Made by a program: the position numbers and the translations under genes
DNA from: Deltaproteobacteria bacterium
GTDB taxonomy: Bacteria > UBA10199 > JACPAL01 > GCA-016699445
NCBI GenBank assembly: GCA_016699445.1
Contig: CP064976.1
Location: 1,449,125 to 1,513,124 of the forward strand
Direction: 5' to 3'
Length of the DNA: 64,000 nucleotides
The notes under the pieces: model-generated
What the model saw: only the letters and a program-made list of their open reading frames with translations
What the model was told of the DNA's origin: nothing
Database searches by the model: none
In this document: in pieces, positions 6,053 to 16,548 of the stretch
Numbering within the stretch: position 1 is the stretch's first letter
Layout: every line of letters starts with the position of its first letter

Positions 6053-8162
6053 ATGAACACGCGAAAATTTTATTGGATGACAGGCCTTGTTTTACACAGC
6101 CTGATGTGGGTCTTCTTTTTCAGATTGGGCATTGATTTTCTCCAGAGTAGCCAAGACTCGTGGTACCAGCTAGCGCGCAATGAGTATTTTGATACTTTTA
6201 TCAAAGTGCAGTTGTCTCTATTGCCCTATTATCTGGCGATAGGCTTGCTTTTCTCTTTTTGTATCGAAAGGATTTTGGATTTTTTTCAAAAGCTCTGGCC
6301 ATCGTCGGGACTATTGAATCAAGGTTTTCGGTACACGATTGTCTTTACTTGGTTTTGGCTTTCTTGGGTGTCTCTTTCGTGGTTGAGTTATTATGCTAGC
6401 TGGTTGGTTCCTTTTTCAATGATGGAACAAAAATTGGGTTTTCGCATCACACATCATCAGCTAAAGATTTTATCCCCTCTGATTTATCTTAATTTTTTAT
6501 TCTTAATCAGTATCCCCATAGTTTCTTTGAAAAAATATTTTCATTTGATCACTTTAAAAAGAAGTCTGATTTTCTTTTTTTTAATCATCGGTATTTTAGG
6601 CTTAAAGTTTGGCCTTCCTTTTTTAAAAATTTCTCAGCATCCACAGACATCAACACAGCCCAATATTGTGATAATAGGTTCTGATGCTATGCGTGCTGAT
6701 CGTTTGGGTATTTATGGTTACTCACGACCAACGTCTCCTCATATCGATGCCATTGGTCGTGACGGGGTTGTGTGTGAGAGGATGTATGTCACAAGCCCTA
6801 GCACGAGTGAATCTCTCTTGTCCCTCATCACAGGACTCACACCTCGCGAGAGTGGGATCCGGTCGATTTTTTATGGGCCTGAAGATATTAAGCGCGTGAA
6901 AGAAAATCCGGGATTGTTCCGATTTTAAAACAAAAGGGCTACGCACAGTTGCTTTGGGTGATTGGTCTGGAAGTGATTTAGGGCGTTTGGCTGATTTTGA
7001 TTTGGCTGATGTTGAGCCTGAAATGAATTTTATCGATTATATCGACGAAGCGGCTCGTCGGATTCATCTGCCACTTTTGGCTTTTTTTGCTAACCCGCTC
7101 AATTCCTGGATAGCTCCTGATTTTGTAGGGCTACTCATTAGTAAACACACAGCCGAGTCGGCTCTTTCGATTGCTGAAAAAGAAATCGGTCAGGTATCAA
7201 AAATCGGCCAGCCACTTTTTATGTTTGTTTTTCTTTCGACGACCCATCTTCCATATGCGATTCCCGAAGGAGAACCTATTACTTTTGGTGATCCTAATTA
7301 CAAAGGTCTTCATGAACGACAGCTTAACTTTTCATCTCTGGATGCCATTTCAACAGCGGACTTAAGCCAAGAATTAAAAAATGATTCTCAAAGAATCAAA
7401 GATCTCTATGACAGCACTGTGTGGCGCTTTGATCAGCAAGTAGCGCGTATTGATACGGCTCTTAAGAAAAGTCATTTGAACAATACGATTTTTATCGTGC
7501 TGGCGGATCATGGGGAAGACCAGTGGGATCCGGGTGTGGGTTTGAGCCGGACTCTTCATGCGGGAGATCAGTCGATTCGTATTCCTTTTATTGTCCGGTG
7601 GCCGGATCATCTGAAGCCTCACAGGATTCAAAATTTGCTTCGAGCCACGGATGTGGTGCCGACTTTAGCGGATCTGGCAGATGCTACTGATGCTGCCAAT
7701 TTTGACAATTCTGAATGGAAAGAAAAGAGCTTTAAAAAACTTCTTGAAGGAGAAAGTCTGCCAGATGATCGCAGTGTTTTTATTGAGTCAGGAATTTCCT
7801 GGACGGGACCGACCTTGTATCCACCCGATGGGCCGCATTTGAGTTATCCCGGAGTGACAAGCTTGGCCGCTCCAGATCGCCGTATCGACTCGCAACTTCT
7901 CATCCCTCACGATAAATTGATGATGGTCATGAAAGCCAAAGATCGTGTTTTTATCCAAGGCCGTTATAAAGTGGCCTACCAACCTTTAAAAACAGGGCCA
8001 TTGGTGGATATGTGTGATCTGGAACAAGATCCGTGGTGTCAAAAAAGGCTTAAGCCTGACCCTCAATTGGCGCAAAAACTTAAAGCAGAAATCATGAAAG
8101 ATCCGGAAGAATTTTATTTAGCTTGGCCCCGAGAGGTTTTTGATCAGGGGTTTGCTCCATGA
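6053..8162 (+). CDS. Membrane-anchored sulfatase / alkaline-phosphatase-superfamily protein (LtaS/EptA-like), split by two closely spaced frameshifts at ~6880-6950
   Basis: Seven or more N-terminal TM helices. Then GSDAMRADRLG...SPSTSESLLSLITGLTP (sulfatase N-terminal metal-binding region with Ser/Thr in place of Cys). The second ORF continues with KGYrTVALGDW and LADHGED (sulfatase C-terminal motif). The intermediate frame 1 reads SGIVPILKQKGY, bridging the two ORFs. Confidence 0.6.
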
Positions 8163-9697: not shown

Positions 9698-10171
9698 ATG
9701 AAAAATTCAATTCGATCCGTCTTAGGGTTTTTAGGCTGGCTGGCTCTCTGTTTCGCTGCCGCCACTACAGGAATGATTTTTCCGACAGGTGAGTGGTACG
9801 CCCAACTCCAAAAGCCTACATGGAATCCACCCAATCAAATTTTCCCCATCATGTGGACGCTACTTTATCTCTTGATGGCCTTTGCAGCCTGGCGCGTGTG
9901 GAAAATCCACGGCTTCCAAAAAGCACGCTTGGCCTTAACTCTTTTTCTCATCCAGCTGGCTCTGAACACTTTATGGACCCCGCTCTTTTTCGGCTACCAC
10001 CATATGGGCTTAGCCTTTATCGACATTGTCCTGATGATAATTGCCGTGGCTGTCACAATCGTGTCCTTCAAACCCAAAGACAAAATCGCTGCCTTCATGC
10101 TCATCCCATATCTCGCGTGGATTTCTTTTGCTTCAGTATTGAATTGGACTCTTTGGAGATTGAATCAGTGA
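9698..10171 (+). CDS. tspO: TspO/MBR tryptophan-rich sensory protein
   Basis: Five TM helices with Trp-rich loops (WYAQLQKPTWNPPNQIFPIMWTLLY...LNTLWTPLFFG...LNWTLW). Start chosen at the ATG with an upstream AAGGAAA. Confidence 0.85.
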   Translation: MKNSIRSVLGFLGWLALCFAAATTGMIFPTGEWYAQLQKPTWNPPNQIFPIMWTLLYLLMAFAAWRVWKIHGFQKARLALTLFLIQLALNTLWTPLFFGYHHMGLAFIDIVLMIIAVAVTIVSFKPKDKIAAFMLIPYLAWISFASVLNWTLWRLNQ

Positions 10172-10213
10172 TGAAAATATTTTTCTCATTTATTTTTCAC
10201 ACCTATTTTCCCT

Positions 10214-10606
10214 ATGACAACCCCTCAATCCCAAATCACTACCTTCCTAAAATCTCAAGCCTTCGGAGTGGTGGGCGCTTCCAACGACCGAAGCAAATTT
10301 GGCAACCGCGTCTTGCGACATTATTTGGAACGTCACTTAAAAGTCTACCCCATCAATCCTAATGAAAGCCAAGTGGAAGGCTTAGCCTGCCTCTCATCTG
10401 TGAATGAATTGCCAGACGAGGTCATCAGCCTTTCCATCATCACACCTCCGGCAGTGACAGAAGAAATCGTCGAGGCGGCAATCGCAAAAGGAATTAAAAA
10501 CATCTGGATGCAACCAGGCGCCCAGAGTGCAAAGGCGATTGCTGTGTGTGAAAAAGCAGGGGTGAATGTGATTGGGGATGGGCGGTGTGTGTTGGTGGAG
10601 GTTTAA
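10214..10606 (+). CDS. CoA-binding domain protein (YccU/YneT family)
   Basis: FGVVGASNDRSKFGNRVLRHY...IWMQPGAQS...AGVNVIGDGRCVLV. Confidence 0.85.
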   Translation: MTTPQSQITTFLKSQAFGVVGASNDRSKFGNRVLRHYLERHLKVYPINPNESQVEGLACLSSVNELPDEVISLSIITPPAVTEEIVEAAIAKGIKNIWMQPGAQSAKAIAVCEKAGVNVIGDGRCVLVEV

Positions 10607-10663
10607 AAAATAAAATATAAATTTGCAGAGTTTGTGCTCAGTCGTGTGTTCCCCGAAGTGAAG

Positions 10664-12304
10664 TTAACATTCACGAATAGAGTTGCTTGATCTTTGAAGT
10701 GTAGGAAATAGTTCTTTAAACGTTTCTTCTAAGTGATCAAATCGCGCCGTCTGTTTATTCTCAGCGGTTACACTTAAATGAAAAAAATGACTTCCTTTTC
10801 CTTTCATCCAGCGATCTTTGGAAATATTAAAAATTTCTTTACACCCAATCTCTTCGATCCATTTTTCAAGTTCATGCAAAGACATAACTTCTAATCCCTG
10901 AATCCCTGTTTGTTCCAAGAGTCTAATGTTTTCAGCAAATTTGAGAAAGCTAGTTGCTTCTGTTGTTAAAGGTTCAAGGCAGCAAATAATACAAACAAAT
11001 TCATTTATTTCGTTTTTAGAATATTGTGAAAGTTTAGAGGGGTTTTTAGCAATATGAAGAAACTGGTCGAAAGCTTCGTAAGTTCTCTCGTAGGATTCTA
11101 CCAAAGAAGATGCTGGAAAAATTGTTTTGAATTCTTTTGAGCCAAAGCTTTTTTTAAATTCAATTAGTAGGCCCCTCTTATCTCCAAGTGGGATGAAAAA
11201 ATCTGGAATACTTTTATCTCTATTTCCAGGTAAAATAATATTATCAAAACAGACGTATGGGATAGAGTAGTAATCAAGAAAATAGGAAAAGTATTTATTA
11301 ACGGCTTCTCCTATTTTTCCTTGAATAGAACCTGACTCTGGATCACCGAATGCGTCTTGAATACGATCAAATAAATATCTAGAGTAAGCCAATATATAAT
11401 ACCAAGGCGATAGTAGTAGATAACTATGAATAGCGCTTTTATCTCCTCCTGTTACTTCGTCTCCTATCCATATTAAAGGCTGAGCTCCTAATGGGAGAGG
11501 TGCATATTTTTGATAAAATTCTGGAAGCATCAATACTTCTTCTTCATGCCATTTCCTAAAAATGCTTGTATTACAAGAGAAGCGTTCAGCAATTAATCGT
11601 AGTAAGTCTGAACTGACACCATATTTACTTTTCAAATTCTCATCTACGTGATTATCACGAATAAAGAATAGACCACTGCTATCTTTAATATTTTCAGCAA
11701 TAGTTAATATAAAAAAAGCACCCCTATAAAAATCAATGGGATGGAAACTCAAATATTTAGATAAGCCTTTAAAATAGTTTCCGTTCGTTGCTTCATCTAG
11801 GTATTTTTGTATAAGCCAATTCCTATAGGAAAAATTAAGATCAATGATCGCATGCATCCATTGTGATCCGACAGATCTGATAGGAAATAAATCAGCTGCA
11901 ATTAATCTGGATAACTCTTCTAAATCTGGGACATTTTGGATAAGTGGTTTGAGTGCTTGTGATGTGGATAAATCCTTTTTAATTACGGCCACTTCATTTG
12001 ATTCAAACCAACTCTGATCTATGTGTGCGTCTTTAACTTCAAGGTATTGATGGGAAAGGTTGATAATGTCTTTTTCTTCGGCCACCTTATCAACATCCTC
12101 ATTTGATAAAAAAGAGAGAACGCCTATCCTCGAAGCATAGGCTCTGCTTAAAAAGATATGATGATAAGGATCAGTTATTCTAAGAGATGAGGGATCTAAT
12201 TTCCAGATTTTCCAATTAAGCTTAGCACAGGTGATCAGAGTAGTGGATAGTTTGTACTTTTGAATCTTTTGAGTGAATTCATCGTAACTAATTAAATTTC
12301 CCAT
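10664..12304 (-). CDS. Orphan 546 aa hypothetical protein, AT-rich relative to neighbours, abutting tRNA-Asn
   Basis: Long uninterrupted ORF with no recognised family. The C-terminal region has a D...EFK-type arrangement (IPLGDKRGLLIEFKKS) reminiscent of PD-(D/E)xK nucleases. Codon usage is visibly more AT-rich than the flanks. Confidence 0.5.
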   Translation of the reverse strand: MGNLISYDEFTQKIQKYKLSTTLITCAKLNWKIWKLDPSSLRITDPYHHIFLSRAYASRIGVLSFLSNEDVDKVAEEKDIINLSHQYLEVKDAHIDQSWFESNEVAVIKKDLSTSQALKPLIQNVPDLEELSRLIAADLFPIRSVGSQWMHAIIDLNFSYRNWLIQKYLDEATNGNYFKGLSKYLSFHPIDFYRGAFFILTIAENIKDSSGLFFIRDNHVDENLKSKYGVSSDLLRLIAERFSCNTSIFRKWHEEEVLMLPEFYQKYAPLPLGAQPLIWIGDEVTGGDKSAIHSYLLLSPWYYILAYSRYLFDRIQDAFGDPESGSIQGKIGEAVNKYFSYFLDYYSIPYVCFDNIILPGNRDKSIPDFFIPLGDKRGLLIEFKKSFGSKEFKTIFPASSLVESYERTYEAFDQFLHIAKNPSKLSQYSKNEINEFVCIICCLEPLTTEATSFLKFAENIRLLEQTGIQGLEVMSLHELEKWIEEIGCKEIFNISKDRWMKGKGSHFFHLSVTAENKQTARFDHLEETFKELFPTLQRSSNSIREC

Positions 12305-12388
12305 ATAAGATCCAAATCCGGGTACTCAGGTAGTTATTTTACTCTGAATTCCGGAGACAGACGACTGACCCCAAGTTTTATTAAATAA

Positions 12389-12420
12389 AAAAAGCCACCT
12401 AATGGTGGCTTTTTTTTATT
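12389..12420 (-). terminator. Bidirectional rho-independent terminator downstream of tRNA-Asn
   Basis: A-run, then the GCCACC-taat-GGTGGC hairpin, then a T8 run. Confidence 0.6.
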
Positions 12421-12421
12421 G

Positions 12422-12493
12422 CTCCGGGGGCGGGATTCGAACCCGCGACCAAGTGATTAACAGTCACCTACTCTGCCGCTGAGCTACCCCGGA
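12422..12493 (-). tRNA. tRNA-Asn (GTT)
   Basis: Reverse complement TCCGGGGTAGCTCAGCGGCAGAGTAGGTGACTGTTAATCACT...GCGGGTTCGAATCCCGCCCCCGGAG folds as a cloverleaf with anticodon loop CTGTTAA. Confidence 0.85.
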
Positions 12494-12657
12494 AAATGCT
12501 TTGCGGCTGCTATCAGAGGCTTTTTTTGAGTGCAACCTGAAATCCTAAGCATAAATTTAAATTTTCTATCCATTCCCCATTCCCCATTCCATAGAAGAAT
12601 TCTGTCTTGACGATTGCTCGGAGAGTGATCACTCTCCAGACATCTTAAGGAGGCTTT

Positions 12658-13497
12658 ATGGCTTGGTTTAAAAGAATATTTTTATTTTTAGCGGTCAATA
12701 TCCTGGTTGTCGCGACTATTTCTATTTTGCTTCAAGTGCTTGGGGTGAAGCCTTATCTGACGCGCTATGGGATGGATTATCAGTCGTTGGCGGTTTTTTG
12801 TCTGATTTGGGGTATGGGAGGCGCTTTTATTTCGCTTCTTTTGTCCAAACAAATGGCCAAGTGGATGATGGGTGTTCACATCATCGATGGAAATACTGGA
12901 AGTCGTGAAGAAAGGCTTCTGATTCAGATGATCCAGGGCCTTTCGCAAAAAGCAGGTCTTTCGAAAATGCCGGAAGTGGGGATTTATGAATCGCCCGAGA
13001 TTAATGCTTTTGCAACAGGGCCTACAAGATCCAATTCTTTGGTCGCCGTCTCGCGTGGCCTTTTAAATCGTATGAATGAGACTGAAATTGAAGGTGTCTT
13101 GGGTCATGAAATTACGCATATTGCTAATGGTGACATGGTGACGATGACGTTGCTTCAAGGTGTGGTGAATGCGTTTGTGATGTTTTTGGCTCGTGTGATT
13201 GCCTTTGCGATTGCTAACTCAGGCCGTGATCGTGAAGACCGTCGTGGGGGAGGGTCCTACTTCATGATCCAATTTGCTTTAGAAATGGTTTTTATGATTT
13301 TAGGCTCGATGATAGTTGCCGCCTTTTCGCGCTATCGTGAATTCCGCGCCGATGCCGGCAGTGCTCAAGTAGCCGGCCGCGAGAAAATGATCTCAGCCCT
13401 TCAGGCTTTGCAGCGTGTTTATGAATTGCCCATTCCTGAAAACACTGCTCCCGCATTTCAATCGATGAAAATCTCTTCGCATAAAGGGGTTTCCTAA
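12658..13497 (+). CDS. htpX: Protease HtpX (M48 zinc metalloprotease)
   Basis: N-terminal TM helices, HEITHIANGD (HExxH), and GSYFMIQFALEMVF with the downstream EFRAD typical of HtpX. Confidence 0.9.
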   Translation: MAWFKRIFLFLAVNILVVATISILLQVLGVKPYLTRYGMDYQSLAVFCLIWGMGGAFISLLLSKQMAKWMMGVHIIDGNTGSREERLLIQMIQGLSQKAGLSKMPEVGIYESPEINAFATGPTRSNSLVAVSRGLLNRMNETEIEGVLGHEITHIANGDMVTMTLLQGVVNAFVMFLARVIAFAIANSGRDREDRRGGGSYFMIQFALEMVFMILGSMIVAAFSRYREFRADAGSAQVAGREKMISALQALQRVYELPIPENTAPAFQSMKISSHKGVS

Positions 13498-13600
13498 GAC
13501 TCTTTGCGTCACATCCTCCGCTTGAGGCGAGGATTGAGAGACTTCGTAAATTGTAATTTATAGAAGAAACTTTTTCCTTCCTTAAACCGATAACCTATCC

Positions 13601-14011
13601 ATGATATATTTTCGATCTACACCGGATTGTTTAAAAGTAGTTCCACCTTCAACTGTTGAAGGTATTAATGTTCCTGTAGTGGCTACAGCTATTTTCTCAA
13701 CAGCTCAGAAAATTAATGAGTATGTGGCTGCAGCCGTCGGATTTTTAGCAAAAAATTTATCTTTAGGTGTTGAGTCTAAAGTTCTCCTTTGGAGAGCTCT
13801 TGCTAAAGAGATTGAGTGTAGAGCTCCTGGTTTTGTATCAGATTTCTTTTGGGATAAAGATGGTAACTATGTCTTCGCAGGCGCTCTAAACGAGGGTGCT
13901 ATTCTTGTAATTAACCCAAAAAATGGAGATATTTTTACAGGTAAGATACCAGGTGGATTCTTAGGCTTAGGAATAGATACGGCGATGGCAAATTTAAGAC
14001 CGATTTCTTAA
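13601..14011 (+). CDS. Hypothetical protein
   Basis: 136 aa ORF with no recognised motif. Confidence 0.35.
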   Translation: MIYFRSTPDCLKVVPPSTVEGINVPVVATAIFSTAQKINEYVAAAVGFLAKNLSLGVESKVLLWRALAKEIECRAPGFVSDFFWDKDGNYVFAGALNEGAILVINPKNGDIFTGKIPGGFLGLGIDTAMANLRPIS

Positions 14012-14496
14012 TTAAACTTCAACGTCTTCAAGAAATTTTGAAAAGGTCGGAAGTAGAGGTCGAATTGATCAGCCGGAAAGCTTCCCGTTAAATTGAGGGC
14101 AAGAAGGTCTTTCATCAGAGTCAATTGGACTTGTTTGACGATTTGTCCGGGCTTGATGTCTGGCGGAGGGGCGCCTTGAGGTTGTTGGGCTGCAAGCATT
14201 TGCTTCATGGCAGAGACGTCCCATGTGCAGACCATTTGAATGCCAGGGACGCCAGCGACAACCACGTCACGTTCGTCGTTCACTTGAAAATCACGGATAC
14301 CGCGATTGGTGATTGACTGCTTGATGCGATCAAAATACTGACGCAGAGGAATTGGCTGAGGCAATCTCTCTTTGGTCATGATGATGTTTGGTTTTACGTT
14401 CTTATCCGGAGAAGGAATTGTGAAAGTCATCATTCCTTGGTCTTGCCAGTTGGCTGGAATTTCGAACTCGATATCATTAACAATAATTTTTCCCAT
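14008..14496 (-). CDS. Hypothetical protein (DcrB/DUF1795-like guess)
   Basis: Start trimmed to MGKIIVNDIEFEIPANW. The upstream part of the listed ORF overlaps the rluA start on the other strand and looks non-coding. Confidence 0.4.
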   Translation of the reverse strand: MGKIIVNDIEFEIPANWQDQGMMTFTIPSPDKNVKPNIIMTKERLPQPIPLRQYFDRIKQSITNRGIRDFQVNDERDVVVAGVPGIQMVCTWDVSAMKQMLAAQQPQGAPPPDIKPGQIVKQVQLTLMKDLLALNLTGSFPADQFDLYFRPFQNFLKTLKFN

Positions 14497-14553
14497 AGTT
14501 TTTGGAAGGTAGCATCGATAGGACTGGCTTGAAAAGCATTTTTTGAAAAAATT

Positions 14554-15510
14554 ATGAAACAAGATAACACACCGAGTCAGAATACGTATCAAGTGGCGAG
14601 TCTTTATCACGGGCAGAGGATTGATCGTGTGATCCAGTCAATGACGGCCATGAGTCGTAAAAAAGTAAAAGCTTTATTGGATCATGGTCAGGTTTGGGTG
14701 AATCAAAAGAAGATCGTGATTGCGTCTTGGGAAGCTAAAAAGGGCGATAAGATTGAGATTCGTACCAAAGAAGAGCTTTCGGAAAATCCTATCAGCGCCG
14801 ATGAATATTTTTTAAAAGTCGTGCATCACGATAAGGATATTTTGGTCGTTGAGAGGGATGCCGGTGTCCCTTGTGAGACTTCGCTCATTTCCACACGACC
14901 GACATTAGTCGCTATTATCAATGCTTATTTGAAGCGTCGTTATAAACATTTGCCCCATCATTATGTGGGTCTTGTGCATCGGTTGGATCAGGATACGTCT
15001 GGTCTTATGGTGTATTCTCTCAGTAAAGACGCAAATAAAATTATTTCCCAATTTAAAAAGCATACCATTCAAAGAAAATATTTGGCGATTGTGCAAGGCT
15101 CTTTAAAAAAGAGTGAAGGAACTATTAAGAGCTATTTGAAAAAGAGTGAGCTTCTTAAAGGTGGAAAAAAAGTCACAGAGTCCACTGAAGAATCAGGTCA
15201 ATTGGCTGTGACACAGTACCGATTGATTGAATGTTATCCCCGAGCGTCTTTGGTGGAGTTGACCTTAAACACCGGTCGCACACATCAAATCCGTGTGCAT
15301 ATGGCGAGCTTGGGGCATCCTGTGATTGGCGATAAGGTGTATGGAGCTAAGCCAAAAGGTGATGAACGATTAATTTCATTCCCAAGACAAGCCCTCCACG
15401 CAAGCTACTTGGCCTTTTATCATCCTATCACCAGTGAGCCGATGGAGTTTAAGTCAGAACTTCCCAAAGACTTGAAGAAGCTTCTGATCAAGCTTCGAAA
15501 ATCAGTCTAG
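14554..15510 (+). CDS. RluA-family 23S rRNA pseudouridine synthase with N-terminal S4 domain (RluC/RluD type)
   Basis: S4-like RIDRVIQSMTAMSRKKVKALLDHGQVWVN, and the catalytic HRLDQDTSGLMVYS with its Asp. Confidence 0.85.
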   Translation: MKQDNTPSQNTYQVASLYHGQRIDRVIQSMTAMSRKKVKALLDHGQVWVNQKKIVIASWEAKKGDKIEIRTKEELSENPISADEYFLKVVHHDKDILVVERDAGVPCETSLISTRPTLVAIINAYLKRRYKHLPHHYVGLVHRLDQDTSGLMVYSLSKDANKIISQFKKHTIQRKYLAIVQGSLKKSEGTIKSYLKKSELLKGGKKVTESTEESGQLAVTQYRLIECYPRASLVELTLNTGRTHQIRVHMASLGHPVIGDKVYGAKPKGDERLISFPRQALHASYLAFYHPITSEPMEFKSELPKDLKKLLIKLRKSV

Positions 15511-16548
15511 TTTCTGAATCACCGTGTCTTTGTAAATACGTGCCTGCTTTTCCATTTTTACTAAATCCCCACGTTCGAGTTGATCGAAAAGATGATTGTT
15601 AAAGGCTTCGTCTTTATCCTGCCGCATAGCACGGAGGAGGTGAGGGAGATTGCCGGGTCCGCAGAGGAGGCGTTCGGTTTTTCCTTTGGAATTGAGCGGG
15701 CCTGAAACAACACGCCACTCTTGGTTAGAATAGGTTTTGGGTTTTTTGCCTAAGAGAAGAAAAGAACATTTAAGATATTCTTTTTTAATACCGGCCAAAT
15801 GATCGAGTTTGGCAATCCAATCGGGGATTCTCCAATCGATGTAGGTGTGGCACCAGTCGCGATTGTTTTCAGCCAGCATGGGACATTCTCTTTGGTGAAG
15901 GCAGGGCGAGAGTATTGAAATGACTTCGTGGGTGATCAGCTCGTCATGAAGTTTCATGAGCTCGCGAGATGTGAGGCGGAGAGCGGGCTCCATCAAGAAT
16001 ATTTTTCCGGACTCATCTTGATATTTTTGCAGACCTTCCACCAGATGCAGACGTTTTTCTCGAGGGAATTCATTCAAAAAATTGAGAGCGAAAATTAGAT
16101 CAAATTTTTGATTGGGAAGCAGTTGAGAGATCTTTTGATTAAAGAGATTTCCAACAATGATTTGAACCGTGGAAGAGATTTTTTTGTCCGGGAATTTTTT
16201 TCTTAATTCGTTGAGTAAACTATCATGAAAAGCTTGAGCATCTTGTAAGGCCAATCGATTTTGATCGATCAATGTCCAGTGCATTTCTAAAGATTCTGCT
16301 TCAGGAAGAAGGGATTCTTCCACAGCTTGAAACGTTCCCATGAGAGCCGTCCCGGGACCACAGCCTAAATCAAGAAAGCGAAGGGAGATGTTTTTAGAGG
16401 GAGTGAGCGCTTGAGTCCTTTGAAGAAGGCTGGTGACTTTGAGGGCATTTACGGGAAGGAAATACAAAATATAACCTGACCGGTATTCTTTTTGATTGAG
16501 ATAATTTTGAGGGAGCGAGCTGCGCTCTTGTGTGAAGGCTTCACTCAA
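15502..16548 (-). CDS. Class I SAM-dependent methyltransferase, Rsm22-like with C-terminal Cys-rich region
   Basis: FLDLGCGPGTALMG (motif I), and C-terminal SPCLHQRECPM...WCH cysteine cluster as in Rsm22 (PF09243) proteins. Confidence 0.55.
   Translation of the reverse strand: MSEAFTQERSSLPQNYLNQKEYRSGYILYFLPVNALKVTSLLQRTQALTPSKNISLRFLDLGCGPGTALMGTFQAVEESLLPEAESLEMHWTLIDQNRLALQDAQAFHDSLLNELRKKFPDKKISSTVQIIVGNLFNQKISQLLPNQKFDLIFALNFLNEFPREKRLHLVEGLQKYQDESGKIFLMEPALRLTSRELMKLHDELITHEVISILSPCLHQRECPMLAENNRDWCHTYIDWRIPDWIAKLDHLAGIKKEYLKCSFLLLGKKPKTYSNQEWRVVSGPLNSKGKTERLLCGPGNLPHLLRAMRQDKDEAFNNHLFDQLERGDLVKMEKQARIYKDTVIQKLD

Follow-up and report, generated by a model that had tools for sequence, protein, structure and literature searches.

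This study addressed the question of what is encoded by a long, AT-rich open reading frame (ORF) lying beside a tRNA-Asn gene in the genome of a Deltaproteobacteria bacterium (contig CP064976.1), and how that ORF came to be there. The 64-kb stretch of the contig that was analysed is called the window, and positions are those of the window unless another locus is named. An earlier note, made from the sequence of the window before any database search, had described the ORF as an orphan with a possible PD-(D/E)xK nuclease motif and had proposed that it is a horizontally acquired single-gene defence or toxin module inserted next to the tRNA gene. We conclude that the ORF probably encodes a stand-alone, horizontally acquired, single-protein defence nuclease of a previously undescribed family, a reading to which we assign a probability of a little under 0.6. 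We favor this reading because a helical domain and a nuclease-type domain are joined in one protein and because the relatives of that protein usually lie among anti-phage defence genes. The parts of the gene on which the argument depends are as follows:

10664–12304, minus strand: intact gene for a protein of 546 amino acids (aa), member of an unnamed family of ~530-aa proteins (ORF call; end-to-end alignment with 114 homologues)
11345–12304, minus strand: all-helical N-terminal domain (~aa 1–320), putative recognition or sensor domain (secondary structure of an AlphaFold2 model, with a predicted local distance difference test score, pLDDT, mostly >90)
10664–11344, minus strand: predicted C-terminal PD-(D/E)xK-type nuclease domain (~aa 321–546 plus the stop codon; model and motif)
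11153–11203, minus strand: codons of the catalytic-type motif P367-D368 ... E382-F383-K384 (family conservation counts)

A divergent family with a predicted nuclease domain

The 546-codon ORF is uninterrupted and begins with ATG; upstream of this ATG there are just seven further sense codons and then a stop. Its product, encoded on a contig of 2.75 Mb, is annotated in the deposited record as 'hypothetical protein IPJ69_08150', and exact look-ups of the product and of both flanking proteins gave no match. Nothing significant was found when the 546-aa protein was scanned against Pfam, NCBIfam, PADLOC, PHROGs, and the sequences in PDB, or when 40 members of the family described below were scanned against Pfam, PADLOC, and the PDB sequences. 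A word-indexed search of 5.8 billion clusters found no close homologue and returned the query alone. The same kind of search performed with a family alignment returned none of 113 family members, even though 39 members were in the alignment.

An exhaustive phmmer search against 1.84 billion representatives gave a different result: 114 proteins were recovered at an expectation value (E) below 1e-3, including 60 with E < 1e-10 and 13 with E < 1e-30. Most of these relatives are 510–560 aa long and aligned end to end, with identities of 16–31% in the alignment. The closest homologue in the protein databases (15 billion proteins) was only ~31–33% identical. Two alignments were used for the analyses below, A1 with 40 members and A2 with 114 sequences. 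The description of the protein as having no recognisable family was therefore correct for the curated libraries, but the exhaustive search supplied 114 distant homologues. For families as divergent as this one, an orphan call that relies on word-indexed search alone would be wrong. On these alignments the gene is an intact and genuine member of an unnamed family that is rare and divergent, and not an orphan. The case is also of methodological use, since a protein that was an orphan by curated libraries and word-indexed search was resolved by exhaustive profile search.

Nearly all of the family members form singleton clusters, and their distribution is patchy. Family members were absent from all of the 80 htpX loci examined in related lineages. 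Named hosts were obtained for three of the 30 members looked up, namely Myxococcus qinghaiensis, Bdellovibrio sp. HCB290, and a Bdellovibrionales metagenome-assembled genome (MAG). All of the named family entries were annotated 'hypothetical protein', and a literature search on the family accessions found no paper. The three named hosts are all predatory bacteria; with only three of 30 relatives named, this may reflect a sampling bias. The genome of the window is itself probably Bdellovibrionota-like, to judge by the relatives of its HtpX.

The alignments identified a small set of strongly conserved residues. Among the A2 members covering each site, D368 was present in 96 of 99, E382 in 95 of 96, K384 in 94 of 96, Q414 in all 93, and G332 in 101 of 102. 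In A1, positions P276, P300, G332, D368, E382, and Q414 were invariant, and K384 was found in at least 90% of the rows. Conserved residues of the N-terminal domain were W31, R143, Q148, R161, W252, and P276. The resulting family motif is (A/P)-D-F x12 (I/V)-E-x-K ... W..R...A..Q-C, and the window protein carries it as P367-D368 x13 E382-F383-K384; the D ... (D/E)xK residue pattern of PD-(D/E)xK nucleases is thus present. The peptide in which the earlier note had recognized a nuclease motif, IPLGDKRGLLIEFKKS, corresponds to residues 371–386. It does contain the ExK, and both the ExK and the assignment to a nuclease-type domain agree with the family conservation and with the structural model. 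The aspartate inside the peptide, D375, is not conserved in the family, however; the conserved, catalytic-type Asp is D368, located three residues upstream of the peptide in the sequence IPDFF.

Structure prediction with AlphaFold2 was performed with A1 and with the single sequence. The 40-sequence run gave a pLDDT of 89.6 and a predicted template modeling score (pTM) of 0.91, and the single-sequence run gave a pLDDT of 35.4. The exposure of the catalytic motif and the rise in pLDDT from 35 to 90 were both possible because the exhaustive profile search had recovered enough distant relatives. The model is all-helical to approximately residue 320 and continues with a helix at 326–345, strands at 369–374 and 377–384, a helix at 398–420, a strand at 435–442, a helix at 448–459, a strand at 470–475, and a helix at 476–500. 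The predicted order of the C-terminal elements, alpha-beta-beta-beta-alpha-beta, is that of the restriction-endonuclease fold. In the model, D368 opens strand 2 (369–374), E382 and K384 lie on strand 3 (377–384), and Q414 lies on the helix that follows.

These properties resemble those of the PD-(D/E)xK superfamily, in which a (P/A)D is followed by an ExK on a beta-hairpin and then by a helix with a conserved Gln, and in which the core has the same alpha-beta-beta-beta-alpha-beta order. The best weak structural and Pfam neighbors are all members of that superfamily. In whole-chain Foldseek searches the leading weak matches were all nucleases of this fold; those in PDB were Nt.BspD6I (E 0.04, probability 0.96), BstEII, Bse634I, Hef/XPF, and a CdiA-CT toxin, and those among the viral models of BFVD were an endonuclease I-like protein, PD-(D/E)XK proteins, and RecU. 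When the 40 members were compared with Pfam, all matches were below threshold; the recurrent ones were NERD (two of the 40 members), PDDEXK_15, and TnsA-like N. The window protein differs from the superfamily in that no curated family model reaches threshold and in that its N-terminal 320-aa domain has no detectable relative; in Pfam, NCBIfam, PADLOC, and PDB that domain matched nothing outside the family. Taking the model and the motif together, we are confident that the C-terminal domain adopts the PD-(D/E)xK nuclease fold, and we regard the N-terminal domain as a putative recognition or sensor domain.

Genomic neighborhoods of the family

Nine independent loci containing a family member were retrieved, and recognised defence, toxin-antitoxin, or mobile genes were found within 10 kb of the family gene in eight of them. 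The neighbors in these eight loci were:

L001–3: RES-Xre, DarT-Macro (DarTG), NYN, and a giant AAA_11/AAA_12 helicase
L004 (Myxococcus): HTH_17 (excisionase-like), integrase, DNA_pol_A
L005: integrase
L006/7: ApeA HEPN protein, with the family gene directly downstream of it
L008: integrase directly upstream, Mrr, large helicase, VapC
L169 (Bdellovibrio): DUF4917, HerA-like, SIR2_2
L170: AbiTii, DUF4062, PT-TG toxin
L173: two CD-NTases, Cap15, IS91 transposase

In a controlled comparison, every ORF of 100 aa or more that lay up to 6 kb to either side of a family gene (n = 80) was compared with PADLOC at E ≤ 1e-5, in parallel with 105 ORFs selected by the same rule around htpX in nine unrelated loci. 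The 80 family-neighbor ORFs had matches in 142 families of PADLOC, in many cases with E < 1e-40, whereas the 105 control ORFs matched 56 families, mainly generic helicase and ATPase models, the best at 1.7e-39. Very strong matches of the family neighbors included those to PDC-S21 (8e-125), HerA (3e-114), LmuB (2e-90), and DarG (2e-84), and those to a CBASS cyclase (1e-83), a Type IV restriction endonuclease (7e-73), and SIR2 (3e-70). Relative to the control, the family is associated with defence islands.

An all-against-all BLASTP comparison of the neighbors in the nine loci found no shared neighbor, and no paralogue of the family gene lies nearby. Because the neighbors are not homologous between loci, the family has no conserved partner gene. 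Neither in the window nor in the nine loci was the family gene adjacent to a methyltransferase gene; the methyltransferase gene at 15502–16548 of the window belongs to the syntenic core genome and is also found in L009, the nearest relative of the window described below. In all nine loci the GC content of the family gene was lower than that of its flanks, by up to 15–17 percentage points.

Several features of individual loci deserve mention. The site of the closest homologue (L001 1–18203, also L002 and L003) is a dense island that contains a gene for an 1818-aa AAA_11/AAA_12/MTES_1575 helicase as well as several large ORFs without a Pfam match (535 and 530 aa). The large ORFs of unassigned family beside the family genes in L001 and L004 were considered as possible paralogues, and this was rejected, since no paralogy was found. 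In L001 a 224-aa gene of unassigned function begins 10 nucleotides (nt) past the family gene; as a conserved downstream partner it was ruled out by the absence of homology between the neighbors of different loci. In the ninth locus, L172, the family gene (10001–11575 of that locus, GC 0.38) lies between a guanylate-cyclase gene and a gene for an MFS transporter in a genome with a GC content of 0.55. No mobile-element gene is nearby, and this locus is the clearest case of a bare single-gene insertion of the family.

Composition of the locus and the question of insertion at the tRNA gene

The elements between and around the ORF and the tRNA gene are:

12421–12493, minus strand: tRNA-Asn (GTT), intact (ARAGORN; Rfam tRNA, 68.8 bits)
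~12387–12417, no strand assigned: bidirectional, intrinsic-terminator-like hairpin between the 3' end of tRNA-Asn and the start of the ORF (sequence and folding)
10599–10615, plus strand: imperfect AT-rich direct repeat (family D4), left copy, overlapping with the CoA-binding gene at its stop codon (14 of 17 nt match)
12374–12390, plus strand: right copy of the same repeat, abutting the A-run of the terminator (14 of 17 nt match)

The ORF call, ARAGORN, and Rfam bear out the position of a long ORF beside tRNA-Asn. The tRNA gene is on the same strand as the ORF and 116 nt upstream of it, so that the 3' end of the tRNA points at the start of the ORF. Directly after tRNA-Asn there is a perfect hairpin, A7-GCCACC-TAAT-GGTGGC-T8, with a folding energy of –18.2 kcal/mol (z = –4.5); none of 200 shuffled sequences folded equally well. 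An A-run on one flank and a T-run on the opposite one should enable the hairpin to terminate transcription in both directions, in agreement with the strong bidirectional terminator described in the note. A consensus terminator scan did not report this hairpin, and it was folding that confirmed it. No hairpin was found at the 3' end of the ORF itself. The gaps flanking the ORF are 57 and 116 nt long and contain no ORF.

Of the two genes that flank the ORF, one encodes a CoA_binding_2 protein and the other an M48 (HtpX-type) peptidase, which agrees with the names given in the note, and the wider neighborhood in the window is one of housekeeping genes (PEMT-like, sulfatase, oxygenase-like, LigB, TspO, and DcrB). 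The claim that the ORF is richer in AT than the CoA-binding and htpX genes also proved correct: its GC content of 0.340 and its third-position GC content (GC3) of 0.261 were the lowest among the 42 window ORFs that are 200 aa or longer, for which the means were 0.424 (standard deviation 0.028) and 0.377 (standard deviation 0.049), respectively. In a fine-scale profile, GC was ~0.33 between ~10600 and ~12400 and changed sharply at both edges of this block to the 0.44–0.52 of the flanks. This low-GC block of ~1.8 kb holds the one gene only.

We consider it very probable that the gene was acquired horizontally. In addition to the composition, its absence from the 80 related htpX loci and the lack of any homologue above ~31–33% identity support this conclusion. 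The further suggestion that the gene was integrated by way of the tRNA fared less well. An insertion would agree with the geometry and with the composition, but the integrase and the tRNA-derived repeat are missing: no integrase gene was found among the window neighbors of the ORF, and the 22-nt 3' segment of tRNA-Asn had no second copy in the 64 kb when up to three mismatches were allowed. The locus resembles tRNA-associated genomic islands in its atypical composition and in the position of the segment immediately downstream of a tRNA 3' end, and differs from them in lacking both of these hallmarks and in consisting of one gene only. Integration directed by the tRNA is therefore improbable in our judgment.

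The only repeat that brackets the low-GC block is the marginal AT-rich one with 14 of 17 matching nt listed above. This repeat, AG(G/T)TTTA..AAATAAAA, brackets the block exactly and is unrelated to the tRNA 3' end. A repeat as good was reached by nine of 500 mononucleotide shuffles, a test that is lenient for runs of A and T. As evidence for insertion the repeat was rejected because it is near the chance level; it could be the relic of a target site or a product of chance.

Comparison with related genomes placed a rearrangement at the tRNA junction. In the nearest relative (L009), HtpX is 85% identical to that of the window, and htpX, the DcrB gene, the RluD-like gene, and the methyltransferase gene to the right are shared. 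Homology with L009 ends at window position ~12606, and neither tRNA-Asn nor a gene of the left flank occurs within 10 kb in L009, which is thus rearranged exactly at this junction. A scan of metagenomes with the CoA-binding gene found relatives of at most 65% identity, without synteny. Beyond htpX there is a second variable spot, at 13538–14007, where the window has a low-GC (0.38) ORF of 136 aa (13601–14011, plus strand) that has no Pfam match, and L009 has at that position (10885–13331 of that locus) an unrelated segment of ~2.4 kb with a 404-aa ORF. Since there are variable segments on both sides, htpX is flanked by lineage-specific DNA on each side.

Two observations concern other genes of the window. 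The consecutive ORFs 6053–6928 and 6954–8162 (plus strand) correspond to N-terminal (profile positions 1–66) and C-terminal (157–300) parts of a single Pfam Sulfatase domain; this looks like a sulfatase gene split by a frameshift or stop, either a pseudogene or a MAG assembly error. The ORFs for the DcrB-like protein (14008–14610, minus strand) and the RluD-like pseudouridine synthase (14554–15510, plus strand) overlap head to head by 57 nt as called. Both are conserved in L009, and the GTG start of the DcrB-like ORF has probably been called too far upstream.

Proposed function and alternatives

According to the reading that we favor, the ~320-aa N-terminal helical domain would recognise or sense a target, either a feature of foreign DNA or a cue of infection, and this sensing would license the C-terminal PD-(D/E)xK domain to cut DNA. 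The set of residues expected for metal binding and catalysis (P/A-D368, E382-x-K384, and Q414) is intact. Such a protein would work without a cognate methyltransferase or antitoxin and without any other conserved partner, and its role would be single-protein anti-phage or anti-plasmid defence. The proposal of a horizontally acquired single-gene defence or toxin module made in the earlier note is supported in its structural parts by the foreign composition, the lack of a conserved partner, and the presence of relatives in defence and mobile islands; its functional part rests on association.

The protein has the motif and the predicted topology of the PD-(D/E)xK superfamily but reaches threshold for none of the curated family models, DUF4263/SduA and Mrr_cat included. 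In size (~550–600 aa) and in the plan of an N-terminal recognition domain followed by a C-terminal PD-(D/E)xK cleavage domain, it would resemble Type IIS enzymes such as Nt.BspD6I and FokI. Nt.BspD6I was the top PDB match with 281 aligned columns, although this match was not significant and had a template modeling score of ~0.2. In contrast to Type II and Type IIS restriction-modification systems, no cognate methyltransferase gene lies next to the window gene or next to its relatives in the nine family loci. Type IV enzymes (Mrr and the MspJI family) are likewise solitary, lack a methyltransferase, combine a PD-(D/E)xK domain with a recognition domain, and occur in defence islands; they may offer the closest functional analogy for how a host tolerates a lone nuclease. 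The window protein differs from them in having no Mrr_cat, Mrr_N, or SRA-like domain and no match to a PADLOC Type IV model, and the idea that it might be specific for modified DNA is pure conjecture. Shedu (SduA, DUF4263) is also a single-gene defence, in which the N-terminal domain varies and the C-terminal one is a PD-(D/E)xK nuclease; however, the SduA match was not significant (E 0.008, one of the 40 members) and fell in the N-terminal region (residues 69–139), and there was no match to DUF4263 in Pfam.

Several results weigh against a defence nuclease. Guilt by association is no proof of function, and L172 had no defence-type neighbors by Pfam. In the window no other defence gene was found near the ORF, whose neighbors are housekeeping genes, and an intrinsic-promoter scan of the 116-nt upstream gap found no convincing promoter. 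With regard to the nuclease domain, there was no significant sequence match to any known nuclease family in Pfam, PADLOC, or NCBIfam. The remote-homology searches suggested in the earlier note as a check gave the 114 relatives and weak Foldseek matches that were all nucleases, but no whole-chain match in PDB or BFVD reached E ≤ 1e-3, the best being 0.04. The active-site geometry was judged from the placement of secondary structure alone. Finally, the Glu of helix 1 that is common in the family (E336, 62 of 101) is Asn in the window protein, which has E333 nearby.

Neither the architecture nor the island context would differ if the protein were an abortive-infection or toxin-type effector, in which the N-terminal domain restrains the nuclease and activation leads to degradation of the cell's own DNA and to death or arrest. 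Several neighbors of the family genes belong to abortive-infection or toxin-antitoxin systems, namely DarTG, RES-Xre, CBASS, AbiTii, and VapC, and none of the family loci contains a methyltransferase that would protect self DNA. A classical toxin-antitoxin pair is excluded by the lack of a conserved adjacent antitoxin or other partner gene across the nine loci, and the present data do not separate self-targeting from foreign-targeting. We regard this effector model as unlikely, although it deserves more weight than any of the three alternatives that follow. One of these is that the gene is selfish and propagates itself without benefit to the host, in the manner of free-standing homing endonucleases or of solitary restriction genes. 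PD-(D/E)xK homing endonucleases are known, and single-gene footprints with sharp compositional edges, such as the ~1.8-kb block of the window with its marginal bracketing repeat and the gene of GC 0.38 in the 0.55 background of L172, would fit such a mode of spread. But most loci carry the gene as cargo of larger islands with their own integrases, no intron, intein, or phage accompanies it, the databases lack the near-identical copies expected from active spread, and the repeat is at a level near that of chance. This makes a selfish gene quite improbable.

We consider it similarly improbable that the protein serves a mobile element, as a maintenance or DNA-processing factor such as a nuclease for recombination or repair, or as an anti-defence protein, with the window copy being the remnant of a lost element. 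Integrase genes do lie 0.2–4 kb away in three loci, HTH_17 and DNA_pol_A genes accompany the family gene in L004, and a tRNA 3' end facing the window copy is the usual geometry of tRNA-integrated elements. The neighboring element genes are not conserved between loci, however; the window has no integrase gene, tRNA-derived repeat, or other element gene, and the ORF is intact and not decaying. That the gene encodes an ordinary housekeeping DNA-repair nuclease of the lineage, foreign in looks only, is very unlikely. Its place among housekeeping genes in the window would agree with this, but its extreme compositional deviation would not, nor would its absence from the related htpX loci, the low identity of its nearest homologue, the patchy distribution in singleton clusters, and the location of relatives in defence islands.

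A defence nuclease thus remains the reading that we prefer. A more specific version of it, which we offer only tentatively, is that the family is an unrecognised anti-phage system whose helical N-terminal domain is a new sensor or DNA-recognition module gating the nuclease, maybe concentrated in predatory bacteria and maybe telling self DNA from that of prey or invader.

Since numerous candidate defence nucleases with this general layout are known already, the finding extends a known theme and does not open a new one. The family is probably a new and uncurated one on that theme, in which a sensor domain is combined with a restriction-fold nuclease in defence islands. If this is true, a compact single-gene system of ~1.6 kb would join the repertoire of defence nucleases, and its sensor or recognition domain, which has no known relative, would give insight into how lone nucleases avoid damage to self and may represent a new DNA-recognition scaffold.

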